DNA of 64,000 bases from a virus (taxonomy: Duplodnaviria > Heunggongvirae > Uroviricota > Caudoviricetes). The stretch lies in the IMG/VR virus record IMGVR_UViG_2795385694_000001; one strand, given 5' to 3'. The notes beneath the pieces were generated by a model. The model was not told where the DNA came from. It was given only the letters and a program-made list of their open reading frames with translations, and searched no databases. This document shows, one piece after another, positions 13,485 through 37,109 of this stretch (the first letter of the stretch is position 1; every line of letters begins with the position of its first letter). Made by a program: the position numbers and the translations under genes.

Positions 13485-13560
13485 TACCAATGCTATTGAG
13501 CGATTCGGGGTTCATGTGGGTACGAAAAATGCCCCCAGCTTTCGCTGAGGGCTCTTCGAG

Positions 13561-13631
13561 TAGTCCATGCGGGAATCAAACCCGCACCAACACCTTGAGA
13601 GGGTGGTGTGCTCTCACTACACCAATGGACC
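13561..13631 (-). tRNA. tRNA-Glu (anticodon CTC)
   Basis: Hand-folded cloverleaf: acceptor GGTCCAT/ATGGACT, T-arm GCGGG-TTTGATT-CCCGC, anticodon loop CTCTCAA. Confidence 0.6.
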
Positions 13632-13637
13632 TTAGGG

Positions 13638-13976
13638 CTATTGCTCAACCCACTTGCCGGATTCACGAACCTCTGTCTTGAGGTTAACCGGCCACATATC
13701 ACGCTCCACTTGGGCACGTTGTAGGTCTTCGCGGCCCACCTGACGTTTCACCCATAGCTGGAACTTTGGTGAGCTCACCATGCGCCTGAACGCGGCCTGC
13801 TTGTTCTGCAGCTGGCTACGCTCCTCGCGCGACTCACCCACCGCGCCAGAAGGCTCATGCGTAATCCGCACGCCCGTCTCGCGCTTGTTCTGGTTTTGAC
13901 CGCCTTTGCCCCCAGATCGGAATGTGTCCACACGACAATCCGAGAGGGTGACAGACAGTACCCGTTCTCTACTCAC
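13638..13976 (-). CDS. arfB: ArfB-like peptidyl-tRNA hydrolase (class I release-factor GGQ domain protein)
   Basis: FRSGGKGGQNQNKRETGVRITHEPSG ... ESREERSQLQNKQAAFRRM matches the GGQ catalytic domain of ArfB/ICT1 and RF1. Confidence 0.8.
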   Translation of the reverse strand: MSRERVLSVTLSDCRVDTFRSGGKGGQNQNKRETGVRITHEPSGAVGESREERSQLQNKQAAFRRMVSSPKFQLWVKRQVGREDLQRAQVERDMWPVNLKTEVRESGKWVEQ

Positions 13977-13977
13977 G

Positions 13978-14051
13978 TCAAGTCGACCGGATTTGAACCG
14001 GCGTCCCCCGCCGTGACAGGGCGGTGCTTTAGACCTCTAAGCTACGACTCG
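13978..14051 (-). tRNA. tRNA-Asp (GTC)
   Basis: Acceptor CGAGTCG/CGACTTG, D-stem GCTT/AAGC, anticodon arm CCGCC-CTGTCAC-GGCGG, T-arm GCCGG-TTCAAAT-CCGGT. Confidence 0.7.
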
Positions 14052-14302
14052 AAAGAACGTTTGCCCCCAGTGGTTTTCGAGGCCACTGGGGCAGGTACGA
14101 ACAACCTGAGCCAACTTTCTGGGAATCAAACCCTGGAGCTGCTTGGCCAAAACTCCCGTGGAGACGGTGCGAATTGAACGCGACCACACCAATCTTGCAA
14201 GGATCGGTCGCCACCTTGGAACATGCGCCCCCAAGGCCCCCGTTTTGACAAGACTGGGTCTGAACTTGGACGGTTACCTCAACGGAGCCGACAACCCTGT
14301 AG

Positions 14303-14376
14303 GGCCTCATCGAGGTCTCGAACCCCGCGCCTCTTCGTTACTAAGGAAGTGCTCTAGCCAGATGAGCTAATGAGGC
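14303..14376 (-). tRNA. tRNA, anticodon AGT (Thr?), with a C.C mismatch closing the anticodon stem
   Basis: Acceptor GCCTCAT/ATGAGGC, D-arm GCTC..GAGC, T-arm CGGGG-TTCGAGA-CCTCG. Confidence 0.55.
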
Positions 14377-14425
14377 CTGGTGCATAGGCGTTTTGAACAG
14401 GTGCCCTTGCAAGTGGCCTGTGGCG

Positions 14426-14493
14426 TACCCAGTCGAGGAATCGAACCCCGCTTGGCTGGATGTAAGCCAGCTTTCGTCCCAGACTAACCAGGC
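14426..14493 (-). tRNA. tRNA-Val (TAC), short D-arm
   Basis: Anticodon arm GCTGG-CTTACAT-CCAGC, T-arm CGGGG-TTCGATT-CCTCG, acceptor with G.U pairs; 68 nt. Confidence 0.5.
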
Positions 14494-14498
14494 ATGAG

Positions 14499-14573
14499 AA
14501 CGAGTGACCAGATTCGAACTGGCACGACCTGTTTGGAAGACAGGGATGCTAAACCGTTAAACATCACACTCGC
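14499..14573 (-). tRNA. tRNA-Gly (TCC)
   Basis: Acceptor GCGAGTG/CACTCGT, D-stem GATG/CATC, anticodon arm CCTGT-CTTCCAA-ACAGG, T-loop TTCGAAT. Confidence 0.7.
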
Positions 14574-14577
14574 ATGG

Positions 14578-14644
14578 AGCGGCAGAGGTGACTCGAACAC
14601 CCTTGCAGCGGCTTAGGAGGCCACGCACTTTCCGGAACTACCGC
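14578..14644 (-). tRNA. tRNA-Arg (CCT)?, degenerate D-arm
   Basis: Acceptor GCGGTAG/CTGCCGC, anticodon arm GTGGC-CTCCTAA-GCCGC, T-arm GGGTG-TTCGAGT-CACCT; only 67 nt. Confidence 0.45.
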
Positions 14645-14649
14645 TTGGT

Positions 14650-14719: not shown

Positions 14720-14721
14720 AG

Positions 14722-14793: not shown

Positions 14794-14801
14794 ATTGTTG
14801 G

Positions 14802-14873: not shown

Positions 14874-14876
14874 ATA

Positions 14877-15047: not shown

Positions 15048-15084
15048 CGTGCCGGTGGTCGTCTCGACATCGAATACTTTCACG

Positions 15085-16473: not shown

Positions 16474-16545
16474 TATTGACGACGGGACTTGAACCCGCAC
16501 ATCCAGTTTCCAATAACTGGTGACCTACCGTTGGTCTACGCCATT
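16474..16545 (-). tRNA. tRNA with a non-standard 8-nt (or 6-nt) anticodon loop; identity unresolved
   Basis: D-arm GACC-AACGGTA-GGTC, T-arm GCGGG-TTCAAGT-CCCGT; anticodon region CCAGT-TATTGGAA-ACTGG. Confidence 0.45.
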
Positions 16546-16999
16546 CTCGCAGCGGAGAATGATTTGACTAGAGACGTGCTTCCCCATGAAGTTCCGAACC
16601 CTTTTGGGGCACAGAATGCTTCACGCCTCTCGTGCTTTCGCCTGGCGGGGCTAATTACACTCTCTCTCAACCGCATTGCGAGCCGTCGCCCGACGCGAGA
16701 TCAATCATGGAACACGCCCTTGCTTGCGAAGCTCGGACTCAGTTCCTTCCGCTCCACAGGGCGCTTGTTCGATAGCCTTTTCACACGCACGTACGTGATG
16801 GTGTCCTCAGCACTTTGCCGTTGGACGGGGCGTAACTCGCAACCTGGCAGCCATCTCTGACTGCTCAAGGATTGGATTGCATGGATTGCCCTTGCGGGTG
16901 GTGGGTTGTCACCCCACCTTTCACCACCTTGCGGTGGCTTATGGGCCATGCCCCGAATATCTTAACTATATCTCCCACAACGGAGTTCGTGTGGGTGAG

Positions 17000-18638: not shown

Positions 18639-18688
18639 ATCACCGGGATTTCCGGCTCCGGTAACCGGTGTGAACTAAGTCTACGGCC

Positions 18689-18702
18689 CACCCACATGAA
18701 CC
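18689..18702 (+). promoter_or_regulatory. representative copy of the recurring ACCCACATGAACC motif (see findings)
   Basis: CACCCACATGAACC between the terminator and the first gene of the tRNA array. Confidence 0.5.
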
Positions 18703-18710: not shown

Positions 18711-18748
18711 ATAAAAACGGGCCCCGATCCACTGAGGAACCGGGGCCC
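18711..18748 (-). terminator. rho-independent terminator for - strand transcription
   Basis: GGGCCCCG-(14-nt loop)-CGGGGCCC followed on the - strand by GTTTTTAT. Confidence 0.55.
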
Positions 18749-18768
18749 AACGTCGAGAAAGCCTACGC

Positions 18769-21737: not shown

Positions 21738-21739
21738 AG

Positions 21740-22793: not shown

Positions 22794-23059
22794 TCGGGGG
22801 CCGCGAAGCAGTCGAGGGTCGTACCAGCGAGAAAGGCCGCGAACAGCCTGTCAGCCATCTCGCCCCGCTCTTCTACGGTCTGCACCCAGACGCTCTTTGG
22901 AGACGCTACGAGCGTGTCGGGGCCTGCGACGATTAGGAGGTAGCGTCCATCCTCCAGCGCAACAGTGAGGTGTCCGTTGGAGTAGTGGAATGGGAGCCGC
23001 GTCCCTGGTGTTTTCAAAGTTTCCATGTGTCCCAGTCTATTTCGGTAAAATGGGATCAT
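22790..23059 (-). CDS. hypothetical protein
   Basis: Start placed at the ATG inside the ACCCACATGATCCC motif (MIPFYRNRLG); the longer annotated form overlaps the upstream gene. Confidence 0.45.
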   Translation of the reverse strand: MIPFYRNRLGHMETLKTPGTRLPFHYSNGHLTVALEDGRYLLIVAGPDTLVASPKSVWVQTVEERGEMADRLFAAFLAGTTLDCFAAPE

Positions 23060-23067
23060 GTGGGTAG

Positions 23068-25931: not shown

Positions 25932-26072
25932 TCGCAGGCTGCCTTACCGGGGAGGTAACCGTTTACACCGCTAGCAATCCAGAGCAGCGCAACCCAAGGA
26001 AACGGGACGAAGCCTGACACTAGGATGATGCCGAGGAGGCTCAGACTCAGGGGGATAACCAGGGGATTCATT
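25928..26072 (-). CDS. 47-aa membrane peptide (MNPLVIPLSLSLLGIILVSGFVPFPWVALLWIASG...)
   Basis: ATG overlaps the stop of the 26068..26526 gene; two hydrophobic segments; below the track cutoff. Confidence 0.3.
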
Positions 26073-26526
26073 TCTCTCCACATCCGTTGTGATTGATGAA
26101 CTTTCGCCAGTGTTTCCAGCCATTTGGACAGTGGAAACCCCAGTCACGAGTCACGCGGCCAGTGATGATCAGGGTGGTGGCTGGCTTCTCGTACCACCGG
26201 TCGTGTTCGAAGCTCCATATCGGCAGAGGCACCAGCTCCACACGATGGGCCACGGTCGCTCGCCGGAACGCGATACTCGGGGCCTTTCGCAGGTTCCGTG
26301 ATCCGTCCGCGCGATGCTCCCAGTAGGAGCCCTTCAATAGAATCGACACAAACCACCAGGGATGGTCGTGAAGTGCGCGATCGTCATCCGACCCGAGGAA
26401 CTTGTGAAGGTAGATGTTGAAGCGCTTATTGCGCGGAATGACGTGCCACCGCAATAGGTATGGGGTCCCATCCTGGCGGTTGAGAGTGATGTCAGGAGCC
26501 CTCATGCGCGGAGTTCCTCCAAACAC
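26068..26526 (-). CDS. hypothetical protein with conserved HKF...DDDRALHDHPW motif (possible metal-dependent enzyme)
   Basis: ORF track; His/Asp-rich motif. Confidence 0.5.
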   Translation of the reverse strand: MFGGTPRMRAPDITLNRQDGTPYLLRWHVIPRNKRFNIYLHKFLGSDDDRALHDHPWWFVSILLKGSYWEHRADGSRNLRKAPSIAFRRATVAHRVELVPLPIWSFEHDRWYEKPATTLIITGRVTRDWGFHCPNGWKHWRKFINHNGCGEK

Positions 26527-26792
26527 TGATTGGCGATTGCTTGAACCCGAGCAAGAGGATCCACCGGCAACGAACCGATGGCACCGTGACGGTGCCTAAC
26601 CCCATATGTTTCGAAGCGGATATCTGACAAGGCACTTCTTGCTTTGTCTAGTCGGCTAGACAAAAGGTGGATCGTAGTCTGCTGTGTCGCAATGATTTCC
26701 GCCATCGTCTGAATGCTGCCATTCAGCGATGCCGTTGCGCCCCAGTCGTTTCCATCCATGGAAATAATCGTATCGACGGGATTCGGGTTCAT
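26502..26792 (-). CDS. hypothetical protein
   Basis: ATG 26792 is the ATG inside the ACCCACATGAACCC motif (MNPNPVD...). Confidence 0.5.
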   Translation of the reverse strand: MNPNPVDTIISMDGNDWGATASLNGSIQTMAEIIATQQTTIHLLSSRLDKARSALSDIRFETYGVRHRHGAIGSLPVDPLARVQAIANQCLEELRA

Positions 26793-26928
26793 GTGGGTGA
26801 GAAAAAGTAGAGCCCCGGTCGGCGGCGCGTGAGAGGGCGTCTAGATACATCGACCGGGGCGACTACTGGAGCGTAGCTCTACAGCAGCTACTTACATTAT
26901 ATAGCTATGGTGCGCAAGCCTGAGTTTG

Positions 26929-27552
26929 CTAAAGACCCAGTTCGCGACATACCAAGCTAAAGAGCTGGCTGAAGAAGTTCGATGACTTCCCAATGCGTGC
27001 AGCTAGATCCGTGGTTGGAACGGAAGGGTTGGCAATGATCGCGTTCAACACATCCAGGCATGCTGCGCGACTCTGATGCCCGACACGGCGATGGAACACA
27101 GCGAAGTCGGGACGAGCTGTCACCAGCTCATGGGCGGCACGTGCCTTTTCCAGGCGGTTGCGGTAGCGAGTATCCACACCGTTGTGAGCGTGGAGAGCTT
27201 CGCCAGTCAGTGCCTCTACCGGCATGGTGATCTGCTTAATATCAGGCCACTCGGGGCGCATCGCTGCGCGTTCAGCTGGAGTGGTCCCACCCCAGATGCC
27301 GAATTCCTCGCCATTATCCAAAGCCCAGGTACGGCACATGTCCAGAACGGGGCAGCGTGAGCACGTGGCCTTTGCGCGCTGCTCGGCGTAGGCCACCATT
27401 TCGGTAGCCAACTCCGGAGTGACTCCATCCTCGACCAGCTCTTCCACGGTGAGGAAATGCGACTCCTGGTCATCAGGGTCACATACGGCTTTGCTGCGCC
27501 AATCAAGATCCAGGTCGCTGGCCGTAGGTGGGCGCTCGATCATAGCGGTCAT
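26929..27552 (-). CDS. WhiB-like transcriptional regulator with C-terminal HTH extension
   Basis: AVCDPDD...CSRCPVLDMCRTWAL...GIWGGTTPAER Fe-S cluster Cys pattern and G[IV]WGG motif. Confidence 0.7.
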   Translation of the reverse strand: MTAMIERPPTASDLDLDWRSKAVCDPDDQESHFLTVEELVEDGVTPELATEMVAYAEQRAKATCSRCPVLDMCRTWALDNGEEFGIWGGTTPAERAAMRPEWPDIKQITMPVEALTGEALHAHNGVDTRYRNRLEKARAAHELVTARPDFAVFHRRVGHQSRAACLDVLNAIIANPSVPTTDLAARIGKSSNFFSQLFSLVCRELGL

Positions 27553-27571
27553 TTGGTTTGTATCCCTTCAA

Positions 27572-28030
27572 TCAGTCCCGGTCGTGTACCGGGACTTTTG
27601 TTGCAAGTGCGACAAGTTCGGCCAGGGTGCAGCTAACCCACTGCTTCATGGGATCAGTTGTGCCCTTGCGCTTGTGAACGAAGAACCCGGCAAGAGCTCC
27701 CGCGTTCTTGGCCTCTACTTTAGCCTCCCCAACCCCTTCGGGAAGGCTTAATGTAGCTACGTCCTTAGTTTCGATAACGATGTCGTGACCGTCAATACGG
27801 AAGTTGACAACATCGCCCTTGTCAACACTCCCCCAGCTCGGTGCAACCTGAATGTTGGGGTCCTGCAATGCTTCTCGCAGCCCATCAACAATGAGGCGAT
27901 TGAACTTCGCCCCTGCGGCTTTCGCCGACTTCCGGTTCCTACTCAACGACCCGCTACCTTTACGTCCGAACCTGTTTACGCGACAGACCCTCAACCTCCC
28001 CGGCTGACTGTCCGTCAGTGGAATGACCAT
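27572..28030 (-). CDS. putative PD-(D/E)xK-family nuclease
   Basis: Start at ATG 28030 (MVIPLTD), 25 bp downstream of an ACCCACATGAAC motif; GDVVNFRIDGHDIVIETK resembles a D...ExK motif. Confidence 0.4.
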   Translation of the reverse strand: MVIPLTDSQPGRLRVCRVNRFGRKGSGSLSRNRKSAKAAGAKFNRLIVDGLREALQDPNIQVAPSWGSVDKGDVVNFRIDGHDIVIETKDVATLSLPEGVGEAKVEAKNAGALAGFFVHKRKGTTDPMKQWVSCTLAELVALATKVPVHDRD

Positions 28031-28194
28031 ACAGAGAGGGTATGACAACCGGCACCCACATGAACTGCAAACGCCTCCCCACCGATGCACAGATGCCCTC
28101 CCAAGTCTCGTTTGGCAGACTGTAACCCTGGTCACACGGGGTCAACATCTGGGGACTCGGCTTTACCAGACAACTGACTGGTTGGGTTTGCCGC

Positions 28195-28518
28195 CTAGCG
28201 GATGAAGTCGGGCCGGTCATCCTCTTCCTCGGGGATCCTGCGGGCCATGGCCGCATAGAACTCCGCGCGTCGCGCCTTCGCCTTGGGGGTCTTCCCGAAC
28301 ATCTCGGGAATCCATTCACCAGCCACCCACACCGTACTCTCCTGGCGGTCAACGCAATTAGCCTTCAAGCACTCAGGACGTACCGGACATTCGCCACAGA
28401 TGCTCTGGACCTCGGCAGTATCCTTCTCGCCAAGTTCGTTGGGGTCCTTGATGAAACGGATATCTCCACCACACTGGATGTACTGATACCACTCCTGGTT
28501 TGAATTCCAGAGCTTCAT
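28195..28518 (-). CDS. WhiB-like regulator
   Basis: CGECPVRPECLKANC plus an upstream Cys; ~107 aa. Confidence 0.65.
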   Translation of the reverse strand: MKLWNSNQEWYQYIQCGGDIRFIKDPNELGEKDTAEVQSICGECPVRPECLKANCVDRQESTVWVAGEWIPEMFGKTPKAKARRAEFYAAMARRIPEEEDDRPDFIR

Positions 28519-29810
28519 GCCGCGAACCGCATCTGGTCGAAACGTTCAGCAAGGATCACGACATCCTCAGGGCCCTGGCGATTCTTCACGAAGCACGCGT
28601 TCATCAGTGGCACGCCCTGGTCTTCGTCATCTCCATGGGACGTAGGTGGACGGGACAGGATGACAGCGACATCAGCCGTCTGCTCAATGCCGCCCGATTC
28701 TCGAAAGTCCGACTTGTTCGGAAGACGCGGCTTGCCGTTGTGCTGCTCGAGGCTGCGATTCAACTGTGCTGCAACAAGAACCGCACAGTCCAGCCGCCGC
28801 GCAATGCTACGAGCCATGGTCGCGATGTAGTCGACTTCCAGCACACGCGAGTCAAATCGCTTGGCAGACTTGACCAGCTGCAGATAGTCAATGAATACGA
28901 AGTCCAGACCGAACCGCTGCTTGTGCACCCGGCACCTCTGCGCGATCTCCTCGATGGTGAGGTCTGGCTCATCATCGATCGTGAAACGGATCTCTGCATT
29001 GTCAGCGGCCCATCGGCTGATCTTCTCCTGCTGAGACGGATCCATCTTGCGCCGGAAGATCGGCTTGTAAGGGGTCTCTGTTCCACATGCAGCAAGACGG
29101 CCCATCAGGTCGTCCTTGGAGAGCTCCAGGGAGAAGACCAGCGTCTCGTACCCCTGCTTGGCGATATGCCACGACACCTGCGTGCCGAAGATCGTCTTGC
29201 CGCAGCCAGGGCGTGCGCCCGTCACATACAGCCGCTGACTCTGATAGCCCCCACCGAGCTGGTCATTGACGTTCATCCAGGGTGTTGGCAAGAACGGACG
29301 ATCATCCTCCTGCGCTGTAGACCACTGGTCATATAGTTCGCGGAAGCCAAGGGAGTAGACCTCCTGCATGTCATCCAGCTGGTCAAGGAAGGATCGCGCG
29401 GCCTCCAACGCCTCCGGGATCTCGCCCGGGTCGTCATGAAGCGCCTGGAACCTCTGCCCCAGGCTGTTGACGGTTCGGATCTTCCACTGCTCAGTGACGA
29501 TCTGCGCGTAATAACCGACGTTCCCCGGCACATTGCAGTGCTCCATGCAGGTCTGCAGGTAGGGGGCTCCACCAGACTTACGCAGATCCTTACTTCGGCG
29601 CAGGCGGTCGAATACCGTCATGGCGTCAATAGGCACCGCCTCCGCATACATGCCCTGAATGCACGTAAAGAGGAGTTCGTTGGTTGGGTGATAGAAGTGA
29701 TCAGCCCTCAGGCCCTCCAGCTTGGAGAACACGTCAGGGTTCAGGAGGAGCGCTCCGATTACACCTTGCTCAGCTCGGAGGTCGTGGGCTGGCTCTCGGT
29801 CTCCTGACAC
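28515..29810 (-). CDS. dnaB: DnaB-like replicative helicase
   Basis: N-terminal DnaB domain (GVIGALLLNPDVF), Walker A GARPGCGKT, RecA-like core with Walker B and arginine finger. Confidence 0.9.
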   Translation of the reverse strand: MSGDREPAHDLRAEQGVIGALLLNPDVFSKLEGLRADHFYHPTNELLFTCIQGMYAEAVPIDAMTVFDRLRRSKDLRKSGGAPYLQTCMEHCNVPGNVGYYAQIVTEQWKIRTVNSLGQRFQALHDDPGEIPEALEAARSFLDQLDDMQEVYSLGFRELYDQWSTAQEDDRPFLPTPWMNVNDQLGGGYQSQRLYVTGARPGCGKTIFGTQVSWHIAKQGYETLVFSLELSKDDLMGRLAACGTETPYKPIFRRKMDPSQQEKISRWAADNAEIRFTIDDEPDLTIEEIAQRCRVHKQRFGLDFVFIDYLQLVKSAKRFDSRVLEVDYIATMARSIARRLDCAVLVAAQLNRSLEQHNGKPRLPNKSDFRESGGIEQTADVAVILSRPPTSHGDDEDQGVPLMNACFVKNRQGPEDVVILAERFDQMRFAA

Positions 29811-30280
29811 TCGACCCTCTCTCTATAAATCTGGGTGATCCATGCCCGTGAAATCTCCCTGTGCCAGAAGCGGATAGCTTCTGGGTCGGTCATGTCGTCG
29901 GGTGGATACTGCTTGGGCATCTTGATGCCGAACCGGTTCTCCACAGCTTTTACGTTCGTGGTCTTCCACTGCTGCTTCATCCAATTCCGTTGGGCTGCAC
30001 GCTCGTCTGCGAAAAGATCGACGTCGTCGTACCGGCCCTGCTTTAGCCACGAATGCGCTGCGGGAACATAGGTCAAGTCGTCCGGGTCACATGACATCGC
30101 AAAGTTGCGCGCGGACTCAATGAGCTTGGCCGGATCTTGCCCCTTGTTTTCGACCAGGTCAGCGAAAACACGCTCGGCCTCACTGATGGCAGTGTGTTTG
30201 GGATAGGCATCCCAGAACTGCCTGAAAGACCGAGCGTGTTTCTTACGCGCCTCGCCGGGGGTTAGCTTCTCGCTCACCAA
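29759..30280 (-). CDS. hypothetical protein
   Basis: ORF track; the start may be internal. Confidence 0.4.
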   Translation of the reverse strand: MVSEKLTPGEARKKHARSFRQFWDAYPKHTAISEAERVFADLVENKGQDPAKLIESARNFAMSCDPDDLTYVPAAHSWLKQGRYDDVDLFADERAAQRNWMKQQWKTTNVKAVENRFGIKMPKQYPPDDMTDPEAIRFWHREISRAWITQIYRERVECQETESQPTTSELSKV

Positions 30281-30705
30281 TCCGGTTCATCGTTGTTGGA
30301 GTCGCCGCCCCAAGCATCTTCTGTGGGCTTCTGGCGTTGCGCGCCGCCCTTCTGCGGAGCTGCAGTGGCAAAGCGAAGATCGGGGCCGAAGGAGTCGAAC
30401 TCAACTTCCAGCACGGAGCGCTTCTCACCCTCGCGGGTCTCAAATGAGCGCTGCTTGATCTGGCCGTGGCCGATAACGCGGTCTCCGCGCGAAAGGCTCT
30501 CGGCTACATTCTCCGCGAACACATCCCAGATGGTTCCGTTCAGGAACGTGGTGTCGCCGTCGACCCAGTTTCCACCCGGGTCCTTCTTTCGGGTGTTCGT
30601 CGCCACCGACACATTGACCACGGCCTTACCGCCGCCAGTAAAACGGACCTCGGGATCACGAGTGAGGGTGCCAACAACAGTGACTTCAGGAAGGGTGATG
30701 CTCAT
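30274..30705 (-). CDS. ssb: single-stranded DNA-binding protein
   Basis: OB-fold SSB signature VVGTLTRDPEVRFTGGGKAVVNVSVA...; Gly/Gln-rich acidic tail. Confidence 0.85.
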   Translation of the reverse strand: MSITLPEVTVVGTLTRDPEVRFTGGGKAVVNVSVATNTRKKDPGGNWVDGDTTFLNGTIWDVFAENVAESLSRGDRVIGHGQIKQRSFETREGEKRSVLEVEFDSFGPDLRFATAAPQKGGAQRQKPTEDAWGGDSNNDEPDW

Positions 30706-30726
30706 ATGCTCTCAATTCGTTCGGGA

Positions 30727-31080
30727 TCAGTTGCTGGACCATGGGTCTCGTAGATCGATGTCTCTATGATATTCGGCCCCCAGTAGGTTCATGTGGGTGA
30801 ACTTTCCCAGGTGGTGCTGGTAAATCGGGATGGAAGCTGGCTCTTCCCAAGGCCTTACGTGATAGCCCTCAGAGTGTGCTGCGTTGGGGTTGTGTTCAAT
30901 CCACCCATGGCAACCGACAGTTCCGTGTCCGCACACGTGGACGATGTTGTCAAGGCTCCACAGGCCTCCCTGAGACCTCTTCTTGCGGTGGTGCATAGAC
31001 AGTCCACCACCGATGCCGCAACGCTCGCATAGGCCACCTGAGCGGCGTGGGACCTCTACGCGGCACTGCTTCTCGGTCAT
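30727..31080 (-). CDS. HNH endonuclease
   Basis: CERCGIG...MHHRKKRSQGG...NIVHVCGHGTVGCHGWIEHN; start at MTEKQC with TAATG overlap upstream. Confidence 0.65.
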   Translation of the reverse strand: MTEKQCRVEVPRRSGGLCERCGIGGGLSMHHRKKRSQGGLWSLDNIVHVCGHGTVGCHGWIEHNPNAAHSEGYHVRPWEEPASIPIYQHHLGKFTHMNLLGAEYHRDIDLRDPWSSN

Positions 31081-31235
31081 TAAATGGGGAGGAGGATCCG
31101 CGCAAGCTGACGAAGCAACTCCCGCTGCCACGGAATGACGATCTCACCGAGCATCGCCTCAAGCTGCTGAATGAAGTTGGGTGCAGGCCTTACAAACTCG
31201 CGAAGCTCAGCGTCCAATGCGTCAAAGTCAGCCAT
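31080..31235 (-). CDS. 51-aa hypothetical peptide
   Basis: ATG 31235; its stop overlaps the HNH start (TAATG). Confidence 0.3.
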   Translation of the reverse strand: MADFDALDAELREFVRPAPNFIQQLEAMLGEIVIPWQRELLRQLARILLPI

Positions 31236-31406
31236 TGCGTGTCCTTCTCCTCAGTTCCTCGCGCTGGTGGGTCTGCAAGCTCTTCAAAACCTTCGTGAAC
31301 GGCCACGTCTTGCCATCGTGAATCAGCTTGCCGTCGCGGTCATACGCGGGCCGCTGGTCAGGGAGCTTGTTCGGCAACGCGGGGGCGTGAAAATGCGATG
31401 GGCGCA

Positions 31407-31745
31407 TCAGGATCCGAGTCCTCTCATCTGTACGTCAGTCCCAGCTAGAGAGCTATACAGCGTCCAGCGGGATGGGAAGTTGAAACCGAGATCCTCGAAC
31501 CAGTCGCGGTCCCATTCGGGAGTCTCTGTAGCCCAGATGAATTCACCATTGGACAGCTCAATGACTGCTGATTTCACCGTCTTCTCTTCGGGGTGTGCGA
31601 AGAGGTAGTCGCCCATGTAGTAGCACAGCCAAGCGCCCGGGGTAAGGTCCGGCTCTTTCAGTTCGCCGGAAAGATTCTGAAACAGCTGACGCAAAGAACT
31701 AAGTAGCTTCACAGCACGTTCTCCTTGAATTCCAGAGTGAGCCAA
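31407..31745 (-). CDS. hypothetical protein
   Basis: ORF track. Confidence 0.4.
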   Translation of the reverse strand: MAHSGIQGERAVKLLSSLRQLFQNLSGELKEPDLTPGAWLCYYMGDYLFAHPEEKTVKSAVIELSNGEFIWATETPEWDRDWFEDLGFNFPSRWTLYSSLAGTDVQMRGLGS

Positions 31746-31911
31746 AGCCCGTCTGGCTCTTGAGTAATTCGAACGGAATACGCATCACCCCCGGGGATCG
31801 TCAGTAGCGCAGCGCCGTGGGTAAGCGTCAGGGCAACCTGGTAGTCCGAGTGAGGGTGACTGCGAATAGCTTGTGCGATGCGGCTTTCCAGTCGCACGCG
31901 GACGGAGTTCA
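31709..31911 (-). CDS. hypothetical protein (67 aa, GTG start)
   Basis: GTGA overlap with the upstream stop; the longer track ORF overlaps 31909..32433. Confidence 0.35.
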
Positions 31912-32433
31912 CATCTCCCCCAGGTACTTTGTTTCGGTGTAGCTTTGGGACTGACTTGGCGCGTCCATGACGGCCTCCCAGTCGTGGAAGTTCCTCACGC
32001 AGAAGCGAAGGTTGGTTTCCTCGTTCGGCTTGTCCCACCAGACAACGTCGTCATCGAGAACTCGATACTCGACATAGCCGTTCGCAGCATCACACCGCAG
32101 GATGGTGAAGCCGAAGGGCGACTGAAGTTCGGTAAGCCGATCCTTTTGACAGCGAGCGGGATCCAGATCTTTGGCGATCAACGCAAACTCATCAGCCGCA
32201 GTAATCACTGGGCGGTCAGTAGCGTCGCGATCGATGCGAAATCGTCCGACCTCGCCGTGACCTTCAGCGATTAGAGTGGAGTTGAAGAACTCCTCGCCAG
32301 TCTCCGGGTCCTGCCAACCCTCATCGGGGTACTTTCCCACTAGTCGAAGCACAATCTCACTCAAGACCCAGCTCCTTCGCCCACTCCTGGAAGTGCTCTG
32401 CCGAGCTCTCGTCACGCAACGCCTTGCTGTCAA
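31909..32433 (-). CDS. hypothetical protein
   Basis: ORF track. Confidence 0.5.
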   Translation of the reverse strand: MTARRCVTRARQSTSRSGRRSWVLSEIVLRLVGKYPDEGWQDPETGEEFFNSTLIAEGHGEVGRFRIDRDATDRPVITAADEFALIAKDLDPARCQKDRLTELQSPFGFTILRCDAANGYVEYRVLDDDVVWWDKPNEETNLRFCVRNFHDWEAVMDAPSQSQSYTETKYLGEM

Positions 32434-32668
32434 GCCACTTTGCGAGGCCTTCCGCTGACTGCGCTGTGTAGCGCTTCACTGCAACCTCCGAGATGCCGCG
32501 CGACTGAAGAAGCTTCGTGCGGTCATGGTCATAGGAGGCGAGCACTACACGGATGTTCGCGGCCATACCATGCGGGTATTCACCGTGCTCCTCGAGATAG
32601 TCGAGGACGTGCGAAAGTGCAACGTACAGAACCTCTCCGTAGGAGATGGGGATCTGGGCGCTACTCAT
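32357..32668 (-). CDS. hypothetical protein
   Basis: Start trimmed to MSSAQIPIS to avoid a 130-nt overlap. Confidence 0.4.
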   Translation of the reverse strand: MSSAQIPISYGEVLYVALSHVLDYLEEHGEYPHGMAANIRVVLASYDHDRTKLLQSRGISEVAVKRYTAQSAEGLAKWLDSKALRDESSAEHFQEWAKELGLE

Positions 32669-33020
32669 CGCGCATCTCGTCTTCAAGCCGGTTGAAGAAC
32701 TCGCCTTCAGCCTCTTTGTACTGCTCGGTGATTGCCGCCAGGAAGTGTTCGCCAACCTCACGGGCGATAGCGTCTCCAGCCACCAAACCAACAGGACCGT
32801 AATTGGCGTGAAGATACTCTGCGACTAGCTCGTTGTATCCGAGCAGCCAGTCCGCGATCTTGTCGCGGTACGCCTTTGGGATATTCGTATGCAAGGCTAG
32901 GAAGTTGATAAACGTACGCGGTGCTTCTGCGATGGTGAATGGCAGCGAGAGGTTCATTGAATCGACCCGCTTGGGCTGGGCAGGAAGCTTGATGGGGTCA
33001 GGGATTGGCTTACGGGCCAT
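32661..33020 (-). CDS. hypothetical protein
   Basis: ORF track. Confidence 0.45.
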   Translation of the reverse strand: MARKPIPDPIKLPAQPKRVDSMNLSLPFTIAEAPRTFINFLALHTNIPKAYRDKIADWLLGYNELVAEYLHANYGPVGLVAGDAIAREVGEHFLAAITEQYKEAEGEFFNRLEDEMRDE

Positions 33021-33397
33021 CAGAAGTTTCCTCCACCAGTTCCGAATACTTGTGCCAGCAGTTTGGAGCGCATTCCGATCGCGATCAGCTCTTTCTCAAG
33101 GGCTGACAATCGGCGTTCACAGAGACCAAGCTGGGCATTGGCGATATCGAGGTCAATGCGCTCCTGCTCGGTCTCCTCGGCTGCGTGAGCCTTCGCCTTG
33201 CCGACAGCACCAGTGAATGCCATCATCTTGCGGGCTTCGGCTACGGCGAATCGAGTCGCGCGCCAATCCTTCTGCGCCCTATGCCAGGCAAGAATCTTGT
33301 TCCACTTCGTGATAAGGAAGTTGACCCTATCCAGCTCGCGGTCGATAAGGTCGGGCGTGAGATCCGTATACGTATAGTCCACCAACTCGTCGCTCAT
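33020..33397 (-). CDS. hypothetical protein (coiled-coil)
   Basis: ORF track. Confidence 0.5.
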   Translation of the reverse strand: MSDELVDYTYTDLTPDLIDRELDRVNFLITKWNKILAWHRAQKDWRATRFAVAEARKMMAFTGAVGKAKAHAAEETEQERIDLDIANAQLGLCERRLSALEKELIAIGMRSKLLAQVFGTGGGNF

Positions 33398-33603
33398 TCG
33401 ACCTCATACCAGTCAGTGACAGTGCGCTGCAATAGTTTCCGCCCGCTGGCTTCATCCACGTACTTACGTGCCTGGGCTTCCGTCAGTTCACCCACTTCTT
33501 CACGGCAGGCAACCTCTCCGCATGGGTACGAAAAGCTCCATTCGACGTAGCACTTTGGCAGCGGCTTGTTCTGCGCTTCGAGCTGCTCCTGCACGCTACT
33601 CAT
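33394..33603 (-). CDS. hypothetical protein
   Basis: ORF track; ATGA overlaps. Confidence 0.45.
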   Translation of the reverse strand: MSSVQEQLEAQNKPLPKCYVEWSFSYPCGEVACREEVGELTEAQARKYVDEASGRKLLQRTVTDWYEVE

Positions 33604-34118
33604 CCGATGCCGTCCACAATGCCAAGGGCAACGGCTTCATCCATCGCCAAATACCATTCCTTGTCCCGCATGTGCTCACGGAACTCGTTGTAAGACAGCT
33701 TGCAACGGGTGTGAGCTTTGATGTAGCGCTCGACCCACTTCTCGCTGAACTCGAGCTCATTGCGTACCTGAGCCATCGTCTGGTCGTGAAAGGTCAGTAG
33801 CGGCTCATGGATGTAGATGTAGCCCATCTGCCCACCTAGACGTACGTCGCCAGCCTGGAGGATCAATGAGGCTGCAGAAGCGGCTCGTCCGCGCACACGA
33901 GTGGTGATGTGGTGTCCCCCACCACCGGCCTCAGACATTCGCACGAGCTCGTCATAGATGGCGTCCCCATGCTCCATGGATCCGCCTGGTGAGTTGATGA
34001 TCAACTCAATCGGACGCCCCGGGTGGTCGATACCAATATCGCGCAGGAGGTTGAGGGTCTTGCGTGCGCCCTTCTCGTCAATCTCGCCATGTAGCCACAG
34101 CTCTGCCGGTTCCATCAT
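33600..34118 (-). CDS. ClpP-like serine protease
   Basis: INSPGGSMEHGDAIYDEL and AASLILQAGD...GQMGYIYIHEP are ClpP-family motifs. Confidence 0.75.
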   Translation of the reverse strand: MMEPAELWLHGEIDEKGARKTLNLLRDIGIDHPGRPIELIINSPGGSMEHGDAIYDELVRMSEAGGGGHHITTRVRGRAASAASLILQAGDVRLGGQMGYIYIHEPLLTFHDQTMAQVRNELEFSEKWVERYIKAHTRCKLSYNEFREHMRDKEWYLAMDEAVALGIVDGIG

Positions 34119-34972
34119 GCAACTCGCTTCAGCTCAGGGACGACACGCAGCTTGCGGGCCCACTGGCCACCGCGAACAATGTCGCGGCCACGGGCGAGGG
34201 GAACCTCGTAAATCCCCCACCTCCATTTCCCGCGCTTATCGGGAGTCTGGGGACAGTGGAACATCAATGCTGTCTCGGTATCGCAGTCATGGTCAGCGAA
34301 TTCAGCCGTACTGTCACCGTTCGGCCAGAAGTCGGCCCATGGAATGTCTTGCTGGACAACTGAATCCTGATACAGCTGACCCATCACGTAAAGCGCCAGC
34401 TGAGCGCAGACACCCATGCGGTACTGGTCGTCCTTGCCGGTCTTGATGTCCACCATGTAGCGGACACCATTCCATTCGACAATGCGGTCAGCAGAACCAG
34501 CAGCGCGTAGCGTAGACACTCGGCCATCGGGTAGCTCCATGCGATCGTTCGCTTGGAGGAAGACCTCTCGCGCCAAGAACGTCATCCCGGGAATGGATGC
34601 GATGCACTCGTGATACCCGTCCAGAATGGGCTTCATATCCTCATCGACCAGTGACCAGTCGAGGTTGCCCTCTTCCAGGACTCCGGTGAAGTCGTGAATC
34701 GATGTTCCACGCGATGACTTGTTCATCGCACCGCCGATGGTCTCGGCCTGGTTGATGACTTCCTTGATCTCGCCCTTGCTCGAGTCCCAGCTGCCGCCCT
34801 TGGCGATGATCGCCTTCACGCGGTTGAGCAGCTGAGGGTTCTGCGCAAGGCCGAACATGGCGTTGGCCTGATGCCAGGCAAACAGCCCGTCCCCCGGCTT
34901 GTCCAAATCCTTAGCGAGAGTTGAACAACGGGAGTATGCGACCCTTCGTCCCCCATCGGGGGTGTACAGCAT
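34115..34972 (-). CDS. recombination exonuclease (YqaJ/lambda-Exo-like, PD-(D/E)xK)
   Basis: VDIKTGKDDQYRMGVCAQLALY motif; sits directly downstream of the annealase gene. Confidence 0.65.
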   Translation of the reverse strand: MLYTPDGGRRVAYSRCSTLAKDLDKPGDGLFAWHQANAMFGLAQNPQLLNRVKAIIAKGGSWDSSKGEIKEVINQAETIGGAMNKSSRGTSIHDFTGVLEEGNLDWSLVDEDMKPILDGYHECIASIPGMTFLAREVFLQANDRMELPDGRVSTLRAAGSADRIVEWNGVRYMVDIKTGKDDQYRMGVCAQLALYVMGQLYQDSVVQQDIPWADFWPNGDSTAEFADHDCDTETALMFHCPQTPDKRGKWRWGIYEVPLARGRDIVRGGQWARKLRVVPELKRVA

Positions 34973-35013
34973 GGGTCGCTGATACCGGTCCCGGGGGATT
35001 GCCCAGTCAGTAA

Positions 35014-35637
35014 TTAGGCACTCGCAAGCAGCTCGAAGTGGGTGGCAGTCGCAGTCAAGGCGTCCACGTCAGTGGAGCTCACCACGGCACCGCCATCTGG
35101 GTACTGCTCCGCGAACCAGACCTGCACGTCCTTCGATGCCACGCCAGCGGCCTTGGCTGCAGCCTTCACGCGCTCCAGCGCCTCTGCGGCCCCAGGGTTG
35201 GTGGTCTTCTTCGGGGCAGCCTTGCGTGGTGCGGCCTTGGCGGAAGCGGCGTTGCCATCATCATCAACATCGGCCACCAAGCCGAGTGCTGCCATGTAGG
35301 CGTAGCGGCGTGCGTAGGTGATCGCGGAGCCGTGGGCCTGTGGGTCGTTCTTCACTGGGTGAAGGACCATCGTGGAAGAGATCTGCTCGCCGCTCTCGTG
35401 GATGACAACAGTCTTGAGCGTGTCGTAAACCTTGCCATCGGCGTTGACATAGGAGGGCTGCTGGGAGACAGCAAGACCATGCTTAGCCAGCACCGGCTGA
35501 GCCTCGCGCATCACTGCCGGAAGGTCGGCGTACTTGGACTTGAAGAACGGGTTCGCCGTGTCCTTGGCGATCACCCCGAACTCGGACTGTGCAGCAACGA
35601 GGGCCTCTGCGAGGGTTGAGTGCTTGAATTCGCTCAC
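35014..35637 (-). CDS. single-strand annealing protein (Erf/RecT-like recombinase)
   Basis: KDTANPFFKSKYADLPAVMREAQPVLAKHGL resembles the Erf-type NxFxKxKY motif; Ala/Lys-rich C-terminus. Confidence 0.7.
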   Translation of the reverse strand: MSEFKHSTLAEALVAAQSEFGVIAKDTANPFFKSKYADLPAVMREAQPVLAKHGLAVSQQPSYVNADGKVYDTLKTVVIHESGEQISSTMVLHPVKNDPQAHGSAITYARRYAYMAALGLVADVDDDGNAASAKAAPRKAAPKKTTNPGAAEALERVKAAAKAAGVASKDVQVWFAEQYPDGGAVVSSTDVDALTATATHFELLASA

Positions 35638-35704
35638 CAGTCAGTAGCTCCTATGTAGAGAAAAACGAACAAAACGACTCCCCATGGCCACCATGGGATT
35701 TGAA

Positions 35705-35932
35705 TCACTTAGAAAAATCTTCAAGAGACTTAGCCACCAGCCAGACCATTCCGGCAACGAGCGCGATCACCACCGCGAGCGCAATCGGGCCCCAGAGAGG
35801 GGCAGTGACCCACCACCACGACCAATCCTGAACCGGGTTCTCCCAAGGGCAGATTTTCATCATGGCGAGAATGCCGAAGAGAACCGTTCCGCCTAGACCC
35901 GAAATCGCCTGAGAATTCCCAGAATCACTCAC
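35705..35932 (-). CDS. small two-TM membrane protein
   Basis: GTG start with GTGA overlap; GTVLFGILAMMKI and WVTAPLWGPIALAVVIALVAGMVWLV. Confidence 0.4.
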   Translation of the reverse strand: MSDSGNSQAISGLGGTVLFGILAMMKICPWENPVQDWSWWWVTAPLWGPIALAVVIALVAGMVWLVAKSLEDFSK

Positions 35933-36360
35933 GCTGGTGTCACCTTCTTCTGAGCCTGCAGGACTGTGCCGTGGTTCCGGGCAACCCCTCGGACAAGTTC
36001 GACAACCTGTCCCTGAGTGCGGCTCGGGTCGTCGTTGTAAGCCGACACGTCCCCGCCGAATCCAGCTGGGATGGCGCGCGAGATCAACCGGTGAGCACCC
36101 CACCAAGCGCGCATATCGTCCCGAGCGGCGGACTTACCCACCGCAGCGTCCAAGGCTCCAAGGATGTCGTAGCGCACGGTGTCCCCGATACGCTCATGTC
36201 GCACACCCTGCGTCCAACCATTTGCCAGAAGGCGCGCCGCAATCTGGAGTGTTGCCGCTACAGCCTCGGGATCATCCAGCACCACAACGTTATTCTTGCG
36301 GGCGAGACGGCGTAGCCAATCAGCAGTAGACATAGCTGTAATTTTATCAACTACCCACAT
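35929..36360 (-). CDS. hypothetical protein
   Basis: ATG 36360 is the central CATG of a CTACCCACATGATG motif. Confidence 0.5.
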   Translation of the reverse strand: MWVVDKITAMSTADWLRRLARKNNVVVLDDPEAVAATLQIAARLLANGWTQGVRHERIGDTVRYDILGALDAAVGKSAARDDMRAWWGAHRLISRAIPAGFGGDVSAYNDDPSRTQGQVVELVRGVARNHGTVLQAQKKVTPA

Positions 36361-36623
36361 GATGCAGTTTGCTGGCGAATCATCCAGCTGTTGTCACGAG
36401 TCTTGTCGAGATCCCATGGCTCAGCACCCATATTCCGTAGCTCACGACACACCCTGGTGCGCTGAATCTTGAGTGTCAGCACGGCGTCAGCGTCAGATTC
36501 CCTGTGCCGCTCACGAATTGACTCATCAAGCAGGAAGAGGTCGAGAAGCTTCTCGTTCCTATTCTCCAGAAACTTGGCTGCGGATTCACTCACGCATACC
36601 AGGCTGAGCCCATACACCGACAT
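36351..36623 (-). CDS. hypothetical protein
   Basis: Start at MSVYGLSL, whose ATG lies in the motif variant ACCCACACGAACATG. Confidence 0.4.
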   Translation of the reverse strand: MSVYGLSLVCVSESAAKFLENRNEKLLDLFLLDESIRERHRESDADAVLTLKIQRTRVCRELRNMGAEPWDLDKTRDNSWMIRQQTASCG

Positions 36624-37109
36624 GTTCGTGTGGGTATGAGCGCCGAGGGACACGACCCCCTCGGCGGCGCGACTGCGCACTCAGGTCGACAGGAAGGGAT
36701 ACTACTTTGCTCGGCCTCCCTGAGTCTCGAAACCCATTCTACTGATCCTGGCTTAGATGGAATCCCACAACGGAAATAATGAACCATTTCCGCAGGTCAG
36801 GGTGTTTCACCCACATGAACCCATGCGCCATGTCGTAGCCTCCTAAAAGGAGAGTGCGAACGCAGTGAGCACGCACCTCCCGCTAGGGAGGCCCACGCCG
36901 GATTGGCGTGGCTGCCCGGAGGGCATCAACCTCCAGACCGCAGCGTCCCCACTTGAGCATGGTTCTCGGTGAAATGAATAACCCTTGCACTCAAGGTATC
37001 TCACGTTGAGATGGAGGTAGTCGTTACGTAAGTCGGGAACGGTACTAGAGCGCGTGCGCGCGAGCCCGCTACCCACATGAACCCGAAATGCGCTGCAAGA
37101 CTTTGACGC

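Follow-up and report, generated by a model that had tools for sequence, protein, structure and literature searches.

Temperate mycobacteriophages of cluster A have many copies of short (13-14 bp) asymmetric sites, the operators and stoperators of their repressors (L5 gp71 or Bxb1 gp69). One such site overlaps the -35 region of the early promoter Pleft, and the stoperators share a single orientation inside transcription units, where they block elongation. The middle promoters of phage T4 have a MotA box at -30, which works with AsiA-remodelled sigma-70 ("sigma appropriation"). In Streptomyces, WhiA and WhiB co-activate promoters such as that of sepX, whose transcript is leaderless; WhiB binds region 4 of sigma-A, and the C-terminal domain of WhiA binds an asymmetric motif near -35, in either orientation and with variable spacing (PMC10243135). 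Finally, conserved repeats CR1 and CR2 are described for cluster M phages (Bongo, PegLeg, and Rey) by Pope et al. 2014 (J Virol 88:2461), as cited in PMC7953290.

The window (the whole stretch of 64,000 nucleotides that we analyzed) is a cluster MabI prophage of Mycobacterium abscessus, and its organization is like that of cluster M mycobacteriophages. Its most frequent 13-mer is ACCCACATGAACC. Across the window, with up to two mismatches allowed, we found 12 matches instead of the 1.58 expected, and none of 100 shuffles reached this count. Six matches are exact (13509-, 18690+, 26786-, 30786-, 36809+, and 37071+, with the strand as suffix), three have one mismatch (23053-, 28054+, and 50542-), and three have two mismatches (16984-, 36353+, and 36623-). 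We rejected the look-alike at 50542..50554 (-), ACCCGCATGAACC, because it is part of the coding sequence of a conserved minor-tail gene and recurs in Bongo, Estes, and prophiGD54-2, genomes that otherwise differ in the motif. This leaves 11 genuine copies, with a possible degenerate twelfth at 6018. Within the genome, the edges of the block are sharp: pairwise identity is 0.90 across the 13 positions and 0.24-0.29 in the flanks.

A sequence-only reading of this genome had proposed that a motif at the boundaries of operons is non-random, asymmetric, and regulatory, that it flanks the tRNA array, and that it clusters in the divergent control region. All of this is borne out, and the genome-wide frequency is above expectation, as that reading would have it. 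The ten sites that it listed are all present, within 1-3 nt, but it missed the copy within the tRNA array (16984-) and the degenerate one (6018-6030). It also placed every copy in a short intergenic gap. This is roughly right, except that the copy at 30786 falls inside an HNH gene, in its last 70 nt, and the copy at 36353 sits where genes 67 and 68 meet.

Mycobacterial promoters have ANNNT or TANNNT at -6 to -13, without a -35 consensus; A or G is the usual first nucleotide, and leaderless transcripts make up about 24% (PMC6448022). All 11 copies of the motif have an ANNNT-type hexamer in one of two geometries, and at every copy this -10 is directed into the adjacent gene or operon. In the forward class (8 copies), the motif is 13-16 nt from the -10: mostly 13 nt, with 14 or 16 nt in three copies. 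In the inverted class (3 copies), the gap is 6 nt, or 11 nt in one copy. TANNNT is found at +14 or +15 in 6 of the 11 copies (background, 0.6%; P = 2e-11); when the inverted class is counted too, 9 of the 11 have it at one of four fixed positions (P = 3e-16). Also, seven promoters have an ATG or GTG 6-7 nt past the hexamer. Both geometries hold in prophiGD54-2, Bongo, and Estes as well.

We conclude that the 13-mer is very probably embedded in promoters. As judged from these patterns, the prophage's own early and middle promoters probably form a family with ACCCACAYGAACC as their conserved upstream element; roughly a dozen early promoters would belong to it. We infer that the host RNA polymerase with SigA initiates 6-7 nt after the hexamer, which would yield seven leaderless mRNAs. 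Relative to the predicted starts, the motif spans about -38 to -26 (forward) or -31 to -19 (inverted), so it would be absent from the mRNA of its own promoter, along with the ATG that it contains. The earlier proposals of an operator and of a phage promoter both fit in modified form, since the promoters that contain the element have an ordinary SigA-type -10 (TANNNT).

At the RtcB end, the exact forward copy at 13509..13521 (-) lies directly after a terminator (13531-13552). Its -10 is TAGCAT (13490-13495, -), and the predicted start, 13483, is at a predicted leaderless ATG (13481-13483, -) for a small membrane protein, followed by the RtcB operon. Just downstream of a strong terminator (18718-18749), the exact inverted copy at 18690..18702 (+) is separated by 6 nt from TAGACT (18678-18683, -); the predicted start is near 18671, and this promoter is predicted to drive tRNA-Trp, the tmRNA, and the tRNA array. 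Within the array, the forward variant ACCCACACGAACT (16984..16996, -) has TATAGT at 16965-16970 (-) and a predicted start near 16958. It is the array's predicted internal promoter, upstream of the ORF at 16701-16949 and the downstream tRNAs.

The forward copy ACCCACATGATCC (23053..23065, -; one mismatch) has TAGACT at 23034-23039 (-) and a predicted leaderless ATG at 23024-23026 (-; predicted start 23026) for the operon that contains DnaQ. The exact forward copy at 26786..26798 (-) follows directly after a hairpin (26812-26860) and a T-run, with TACGAT at 26767-26772 (-); the predicted leaderless ATG (26757-26759, -; predicted start 26759) encodes a Met that is conserved in orthologues. The inverted copy ACCCACATGAACT (28054..28066, +) has an 11-nt gap to TACCCT (28037-28042, -), and the predicted leaderless ATG (28028-28030, -; predicted start 28030) is in frame with a Holliday-junction-resolvase ORF, which precedes a long WhiB gene. 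At the exact forward copy at 30786..30798 (-), with TATCAT at 30766-30771 (-) and a predicted start near 30759, we predict a leadered transcript for the SSB, RepA-like, DnaB, and short-WhiB genes.

In the divergent control region, the inverted copy ACCCACATGATGC (36353..36365, +) has a 6-nt gap to TAAAAT (36341-36346, -), and the predicted leaderless ATG (36331-36333, -; predicted start 36333) is the conserved Met of a DUF6197 protein (gene 68). A hairpin precedes the forward variant ACCCACACGAACA (36623..36635, -), which has a 16-nt gap to CAGCCT (36601-36606, -); the predicted leaderless GTG (36591-36593, -; predicted start 36593) is that of the first gene of the main early operon. The other strand has two exact forward copies. 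The copy at 36809..36821 (+), with TAGCCT at 36836-36841, has a predicted start near 36848 for an unannotated transcript of ~200 nt whose conserved 5' end is AAGGAGAGTGCGAACGCAGTGAGC. The copy at 37071..37083 (+), with AAGACT at 37097-37102, has a predicted leaderless ATG at 37110-37112 (predicted start 37110) for an operon with a nucleotidyltransferase. The possible twelfth copy (6011..6030, -; inverted geometry) reads ACCCACTTAATGC, which overlaps and is followed by (T)GCAGGTCAG, with TACGTT at 6037-6042 (+), and it is syntenic with Bongo 70572 and Estes 73647.

Seven further MabI prophages keep all nine sites within reach, with unchanged geometry. Their hexamers vary (for example, TAAAAT/TAGAAT, TAGACT/TACACT/TAAACT, and TACGAT/TACCAT) but are always TANNNT. 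Beyond MabI, syntenic sites have different lineage-specific words: ACCCACATGAACC in MabI corresponds to TCCTGTAATCACC in M1 and M2 (Bongo and Estes), TTCCCGTCTTACC in L118, TTCCCGTTTTGCG in L117, and ACCTGTTTCAC in L122. The last three lineages show the forward geometry with a slightly larger gap. Between Bongo and Estes, motif identity is 0.94 while flank identity is 0.37-0.50. K-mer counts gave no obvious repeated word in L121 (MG009575), although it has a homolog of the WhiB-HTH protein discussed below.

The Bongo and Estes words are probably the CR1/CR2 repeats reported for cluster M. The genomes that carry them are built like those of MabI, and the words take up matching syntenic places, in the divergent control region and the right arm, upstream of SSB and DnaQ, before the tRNA array and RtcB, and after the long WhiB gene. 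In both clusters, a 13-bp asymmetric block stands in two geometries to TANNNT, with predicted leaderless starts. The words differ, with 7 of 13 positions in common (xCCxxxAxxxACC). Also, MabI has one word for both geometries, whereas the inverted sites of M1 and M2 carry an extended variant, ...TCGCAGGTCAG. We regard the motif as a new sequence of an already known kind of repeat.

What reads the motif? The 13-mer would occupy the usual place of the -35 hexamer, yet it does not resemble one. This, together with the swapping of the word at the same positions in sister lineages, suggests a docking site for a lineage-specific regulator rather than a sigma-contact sequence. It is quite likely that a phage-specific protein reads the 13-mer. 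Our best candidate, put forward tentatively and as an activator, is the 207-aa WhiB-HTH fusion encoded at 26929-27552 (-), a gene that had already been named as a candidate binder and that we keep as such. In this protein, a WhiB domain (residues 18-98) and a flexible linker are followed by a long helix and a modelled helix-turn-helix (124-207); Pfam reports the Whib domain and a weak HTH. In the AlphaFold2 model, the C-terminal domain has a pLDDT of about 90 and resembles the C-terminal DNA-reading part of WhiA, in a model built from a 10-sequence alignment with a mean pLDDT of 68; comparison at the sequence level did not support this resemblance. Members of the family are rare, and those found all come from this type of phage early region. 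The putative recognition helix does not vary within MabI, is alike in M1 and M2 (which have a common motif), and differs from lineage to lineage, a covariation that is confounded with phylogeny because all of the carriers are syntenic relatives.

If this candidate is correct, the WhiB domain would hold region 4 of sigma-A while the flexibly linked, WhiA-like helix-turn-helix would read the 13-mer. The protein would supply the missing -35 recognition and turn on the forward promoters, and it might damp the inverted ones. One inverted promoter precedes the operon that holds the long WhiB gene itself; in Bongo and Estes, there is no inverted site ahead of this gene. Since the first early promoter (36623-) also has the motif, it would need some basal, factor-independent firing if the WhiB-HTH protein were required at all forward promoters. 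The inverted sites lie in the -35/-10 spacer, which is the classical position for a repressor and speaks against an activator.

As with WhiA/WhiB, an asymmetric word stands next to the core promoter in either orientation, and a WhiB-family domain for sigma-A region 4 would be linked to a helix-turn-helix of the modelled WhiA C-terminal fold. But a single 207-aa chain that lacks the homing-endonuclease-like domain would have both functions; the 13-bp word covers the -35 or the spacer, while the Streptomyces WhiA word lies upstream of it; and the sequence is not GACAC. As in T4, a phage box replaces the -35 at a fixed distance from a normal -10, and the proposed reader is a phage factor attached to region 4 of sigma. 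The proteins and sequences are unrelated, and T4 early promoters lack the box while the first early promoter of MabI has the motif.

The main alternative, which is possible but which we think unlikely, is that the promoter-embedded sites are operators of the MabI immunity repressor, by analogy with L5 gp71 at Pleft and at stoperators. One molecule per site would cover the -35 region (forward) or the spacer (inverted) and keep the early promoters silent in the lysogen, and heteroimmunity between lineages would account for their different words. With about 12 separate early promoters, a temperate phage must shut off every one, including the first, which has the motif too. In either geometry the site overlaps the core promoter, an arrangement that suits a repressor whatever the orientation. 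Furthermore, M1 and M2 phages have identical 13-mers despite diverged flanks, and these phages are reportedly homoimmune. According to PMC8092301, M. abscessus prophages are mostly transcriptionally silent and the repressor of MabI is unknown; no known protein is therefore excluded. However, simple occlusion needs no exact register, and the register persists across four genomes (13 nt at about 20 forward sites and 6 nt at about 10 inverted sites) despite diverged spacers and hexamers. Among 15 small proteins tested, there was no repressor candidate with a recognizable DNA-binding domain. The likeness to cluster A is also partial. Its stoperators likewise occur in many copies in non-coding gaps of temperate mycobacteriophages, but they differ in sequence, number 24-36 instead of about 12, and are scattered within operons, not tied to a -10, whereas each MabI copy has its own -10 in fixed register, in two orientations. 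The cluster A sites have known repressors, and the MabI motif has no assigned one.

It is far less probable that the 13-mer is a -35-type sequence for a sigma factor, either an alternative one of the host or one of the phage, or for a phage-encoded RNA polymerase. A conserved word at the -35 position, with fixed spacing to the -10, would fit, and its 3' end (TGAACC) presumably resembles the -35 elements of ECF-type sigma factors. But the downstream hexamer is the housekeeping TANNNT and not an ECF-type -10, and an ECF promoter would need more than the 13 nt that separate TGAACC and the hexamer. Near-identical sigma factors in the hosts would leave five different words unexplained, the inverted class is unreadable as a -35 element, and the annotations of prophi86-1, prophiGD54-2, Bongo, and Estes include no gene for a sigma factor or RNA polymerase.

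We give the least credence to the proposal that leaderless or specially initiated mRNAs use the motif's central ATG (or CAT) as their start codon, or that the motif is an RNA processing site. At 26786 and 23053, the ATG shares its frame with the downstream ORF; at 13509, it opens an 11-codon ORF whose stop overlaps the next ATG; and it is the annotated start of prophi86-1 genes 89 and 68 (it is not that of genes 100 and 138). But the ATG is ACG in 36623-, 16984-, and copies from the related prophages L092 and L096, positionally equivalent motifs in four other lineages lack it, and orthologous N-termini align to a Met 9-11 codons downstream. In prophiGD54-2, the annotation of the gene 89 orthologue begins at the downstream ATG, and the short frame at 37071 is not kept. 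Also, the ATG has no suitably spaced -10 upstream but a fixed-distance hexamer downstream, the three inverted copies would have to be read from the other strand, and the motif lies upstream of the predicted transcription start, which leaves a start-associated or RNA-processing element unsupported. The start-associated sequences (SAS) of cluster K and the CR3/CR4 repeats of cluster M are also short conserved words near mycobacteriophage gene starts, but they include the Shine-Dalgarno sequence, a few nt ahead of the start codon. Their MabI counterpart is not ACCCACATGAACC but another word, CACACGGAAGGGATAC, the genome's real start-associated (Shine-Dalgarno-type) repeat, which is found at 531-6066.

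The 13-bp asymmetric element ACCCACATGAACC is the most frequent 13-mer in the window. Allowing up to two mismatches, we found 12 matches in a genome-wide pattern search, versus 1.58 expected, and none of 100 shuffled sequences reached 12, so the repetition noticed in the sequence-only reading is well above expectation. We rejected the match at 50542 as a member of the family: it sits in a conserved minor-tail gene, and the same word is found in the cluster M phages Bongo (M1) and Estes (M2) and in prophiGD54-2, so we count it as a look-alike within coding sequence. Genuine copies are absent from the window's structural-gene half. Among the genuine copies, the conserved block is exactly 13 bp, with a pairwise identity of 0.90 inside the block versus 0.24-0.29 in the flanks. 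The sites listed in the sequence-only reading are all confirmed, while a copy at 16984 (-) and a degenerate one at 6018-6030 had been overlooked. The copies at 13509 and 18690 directly follow strong intrinsic terminators (13531-13552 and 18718-18749, respectively), and a third copy is preceded by a hairpin with a T-run. This suggests that the sites mark boundaries where a terminator is followed by a new promoter.

The 64-kb window is a prophage. It has ~97% nucleotide identity to prophi86-1 and prophiT49-2; within 26000-38000, ~97% of the sequence matches these two and 83% matches prophiGD54-2, and all three are Mycobacterium abscessus prophages of cluster MabI. (The window's orientation is reversed relative to those three records.) By its identity to these prophages, and given the organization reported for MabI, we class it as a cluster M-like phage, a type with the gene order of a long-tailed siphovirus, a large tRNA array with a tmRNA, RtcB, and a serine integrase that is far from attP. 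MabI prophages, which reside in clinical M. abscessus strains, resemble cluster M mycobacteriophages in organization according to published descriptions, which call the MabI repressor "unclear" (PMC9934374, PMC8092301). Cluster M phages are known for the conserved repeats CR1-CR4 (PMC7953290). No deposited MabI prophage is identical to the window; the match to prophi86-1 is interrupted at 550-1750, 12600-13380, and elsewhere by segments that this prophage lacks, a sign of mosaic replacement. Also, the tRNA at 16474-16545 (-) has an irregular anticodon loop ("tg" according to ARAGORN); the equivalent gene of prophi86-1 is annotated as tRNA-Gln(ttg), and that of prophiGD54-2 as tRNA-Gln|Pro(tg).

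Aligning all of the copies by their 13-bp block revealed a -10 hexamer of the mycobacterial type at a fixed distance. TANNNT begins 14-15 nt past the motif in 6 of the 11 copies (background 0.6%, P = 2e-11). At 18690+, 28054+, and 36353+, the hexamer is on the opposite strand, which is the strand of the gene, 6 or 11 nt past the 5' end of the motif; we therefore rejected the idea that these three are orphan or antisense copies. The hexamer is thus found on either strand, and the copies fall into two classes of geometry. Forward copies are upstream of the -10 in their own orientation and span about -38 to -26, whereas inverted copies span about -31 to -19. A full TANNNT is present at one of four fixed positions in 9/11 copies (P = 3e-16), and the hexamer is directed into the adjacent gene or operon in 11/11 cases. 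A canonical sigma-70 scan (TTGACA-N16-18-TATAAT) recovered none of these predicted promoters, as expected from the absence of a -35 hexamer.

Of the promoters of M. smegmatis, 79% carry ANNNT at -6 to -13, and TANNNT is favored; there is no -35 consensus, the +1 is usually A or G, and 24% of transcripts are leaderless (PMC6448022). From that study, we defined a SigA-type leaderless promoter as (T)ANNNT at -6 to -13 with a +1 A or G that begins an ATG or GTG, and the motif-linked sites have this sequence arrangement. An ATG or GTG lies 6-7 nt past the hexamer at 13509, 23053, 26786, 37071, 36623, 28054, and 36353. The combination of hexamer and ATG/GTG is the signature of mycobacterial leaderless mRNAs, and it predicts the start sites. 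Counting downstream from the motif and across the intervening -10, the predicted start is reached after 25-29 nt at forward copies and after 18-23 nt at inverted ones.

These predicted starts are not the ATG within the motif itself, which the sequence-only reading had proposed to be a frequent start codon. The T of that ATG is C at 36623 (-) and 16984 (-), and two other MabI prophages have the same substitution in their gene-66 promoter; the equivalent words of other lineages have no ATG. We compared the products of gene 68 (DUF6197) and gene 89 with their orthologs from Bongo, Estes, and two more distant syntenic lineages (L118 and L122). The orthologs align from a methionine that is 9-11 codons downstream, and this conserved methionine is the predicted leaderless start. 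The short frame that opens at 37071 is not maintained in prophiGD54-2. Finally, a search for a -10 ahead of the ATG in the motif gave no consistent hexamer, so we reject leaderless initiation at the motif. Nor does the motif resemble the start-associated sequences of cluster K, which contain a Shine-Dalgarno sequence and lie 3-8 nt upstream of the start codon: it has no purine-rich core. The annotated starts of prophi86-1 genes 68 and 89 are probably 9-11 codons too early (window 36331-36360 and 26757-26792 (-)), and the start of gene 87 (Holliday-junction resolvase; 27946-28030 (-)) may be a predicted leaderless ATG at 28030, which is 28 codons upstream of the annotated one. The analysis thus offers revised starts for genes 68 and 89, and probably 87, in prophi86-1-like records.

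The sites are conserved in related prophages. All 11 are retained in prophiGD54-2, where a further site, at record position 8820, falls beyond the range of the window. In seven further MabI prophages from IMG/VR, all of the reachable sites (9/9) are kept with the same geometry; their hexamers vary but are still TANNNT. Bongo and Estes have a different word, TCCTGTAATCACC, at the same syntenic places, site by site. At their forward sites it lies 13 nt before the hexamer, and at their inverted sites an extended form (...TCGCAGGTCAG) lies 6 nt before the hexamer. Between Bongo and Estes, the identity of the word is 0.94, versus 0.37-0.50 in the flanks. By synteny, then, the MabI copies correspond to the repeats of Bongo and Estes, which are probably the CR1/CR2 of cluster M, a kind of element that was reportedly described in 2014 by Pope et al. 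However, they do not match the cluster M consensus: TCCTGTAATCACC is absent from the window, and 7 of 13 positions are common to the two words. Conversely, ACCCACATGAACC is absent from Bongo and Estes outside of the tail gene. The forward-site words of the more distant lineages are TTCCCGTCTTACC (L118), TTCCCGTTTTGCG (L117), and ACCTGTTTCAC (L122), with comparable spacing to TANNNT, and the words of the various lineages have a 5' theme of WCCYRY in common. That the position is fixed while the sequence changes from lineage to lineage points to a reader that is specific to each lineage, a protein other than the host's sigma factor. When viral contigs were scanned with the conserved element AAGGANAGTGCGAACGC, the matches were known M and MabI genomes and unrelated chance hits, with no new class of motif.

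The promoter of the first early gene (36623) has a longer spacing: the gap between motif and hexamer is 16 nt, versus 13 at the other MabI forward sites. The corresponding promoter of L122 (position 1471) has a gap of 19 nt instead of 16, which is likewise 3 nt longer. In Bongo and Estes this gap is the normal 13 nt. The promoter of the first early gene has a conserved GC-rich hairpin upstream.

The sequence-only reading had suggested the phage's WhiB-like proteins as binders of the motif. For one of these, the 207-aa product of 26929-27552, the candidacy is supported by a WhiB domain together with a modelled helix-turn-helix (HTH). This long WhiB protein matches Pfam's Whib (E = 2e-18) and WhiB structures in PDB; the four cysteines that bind the cluster in WhiB domains are present and invariant (C24, C64, C67, and C73). 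There is also a weak match to an HTH at the C-terminus. The C-terminal 85 residues are modelled as a long helix and an HTH (pLDDT ~90), joined to the WhiB domain by a low-confidence linker. A sequence-profile search with this domain found no significant match in PDB. The domain is rare: we found 8 representatives among 1.8 billion sequences, which are ~190-210 aa long except for one weak match of 933 aa, and six of the 8 align as WhiB plus the C-terminal domain. All of the contigs recovered with it are from the early region of cluster M-like phages. A profile scan of genome contigs with the WhiB alignment found only generic host WhiB genes.

In Streptomyces, WhiB binds region 4 of sigma-A, and the C-terminal HTH of WhiA recognizes the asymmetric sequence GACAC regardless of its orientation and over a range of distances; sepX, the model promoter there, is leaderless (PMC10243135). 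The sigma-binding patch is generally retained in phage WhiB-like proteins (PMC13013590). We think there is a reasonable chance, though somewhat short of even, that the long WhiB protein would act as a sigma-tethered activator that reads the motif. A single protein would combine the WhiB domain and the HTH, and the putative recognition helix tracks the word of the lineage: all MabI members have the same helix (KSSNFFSQLF), M1 and M2, which have the same word as each other, have similar helices (RRGEYINSML in Bongo), and the helix differs elsewhere. But this covariation is confounded with phylogeny, the putative match to the WhiA fold is based on a model, the spacer is an unusual site for an activator, and the first early promoter carries the word too.

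It is also possible, if on balance unlikely, that the motif is an operator for the immunity repressor. Both geometries overlap the core promoter, and a lysogen requires that all early promoters be silent. M1 and M2 phages, which share a word, were reported in 2014 to be homoimmune. However, the exact register is left unexplained by occlusion alone, and searches of 15 small proteins from the right arm and control region against Pfam and PHROGs identified no candidate for the repressor. The activator and operator models are compatible and are not mutually exclusive.

The resemblance to the stoperators of cluster A, proposed in the sequence-only reading, is partial. Cluster A stoperators and operators, which are bound by the immunity repressor, are also asymmetric sites of 13-14 bp with many copies in temperate mycobacteriophages. 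In contrast to stoperators, which lie within transcription units in one orientation and independently of a -10, each MabI copy keeps a fixed register to a -10, and both orientations are used. We rejected the idea that TGAACC is an ECF-type element because of the spacing and the type of the -10.

We tentatively propose, as a doubtful but specific scheme, that in cluster M-like phages (M, MabI, and at least three further lineages) a single-chain fusion of WhiB and a WhiA-like HTH runs the early program. It would clamp region 4 of sigma-A and use the 13-bp word as a surrogate for the -35, activating at forward sites and repressing at inverted sites, including that of its own operon. The inverted site at 28054 precedes the operon that contains the long WhiB gene, which would allow autoregulation. 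If so, this would be a one-protein counterpart of the appropriation of sigma by T4, with a specificity that is swapped between phage lineages. It would also be the first defined function of a phage WhiB beyond TM4 and would offer orthogonal promoter/regulator pairs for mycobacterial genetics.

In our literature search, neither motif string appeared in a phage context, and the MabI word was unmentioned. The two-geometry promoters, the leaderless starts, the lineage-specific words, and the fusion of WhiB to a WhiA-like domain also seem to be undescribed, although the 2014 cluster M paper may hold part of this. As far as we can see, the mechanistic hypothesis is new. Given the promoter geometry and a named candidate reader, the function of the cluster M repeats, open since 2014, is now testable. 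The outcome is a catalog of ~12 predicted promoters and their exact predicted start sites, and a short DNA word that is predicted to control the entire early program.

Other conserved sequences were also noticed. A second family of repeats, (CA)CACGGAAGGGATAC, lies 2-6 nt upstream of the ATG starts of small right-arm genes, at 531-544, 1155-1168, 1869-1882, 2368-2381, 3586-3599, 3886-3899, and 6053-6066 (all +), and also at 36692. This is a start-associated sequence of the Shine-Dalgarno type; its counterpart in Bongo and Estes is ACACGGAGAAGGGAA, which is probably CR3/CR4.

Downstream of the promoter at 36809 is an unannotated stretch of ~200 nt (36847-37050, +). Its 5' end, AAGGAGAGTGCGAACGCAGTGAGC, is kept in MabI, Bongo, and Estes, while the hairpins that follow differ. 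The short ORFs in this stretch are not conserved, and a 1-nt insertion breaks the frame in Estes. The stretch may encode a small RNA. Rfam had no match for it and nothing credible across the control region.

A short sequence, (C/T)GCAGGTCAG, recurs beside the promoter motif, at 36791-36800 and 6011-6020 in the window and at 36959, 37849, 60330, 63831, and 70581 in Bongo; both Bongo and Estes also have it close to the right end of the genome. In the M phages it is fused to inverted copies, which places its reverse complement, CTGACC, at the -35 position. Finally, the predicted M1 and M2 promoter upstream of DnaQ would start a four-codon leaderless mini-ORF (MENR* at 50236-50250 of Bongo, L005; MENQ* at 52592-52605 of Estes). 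The stop codon of the mini-ORF overlaps the ATG of DnaQ (ATGA), an arrangement suggesting that the translation of DnaQ is coupled to that of the leaderless mini-ORF.
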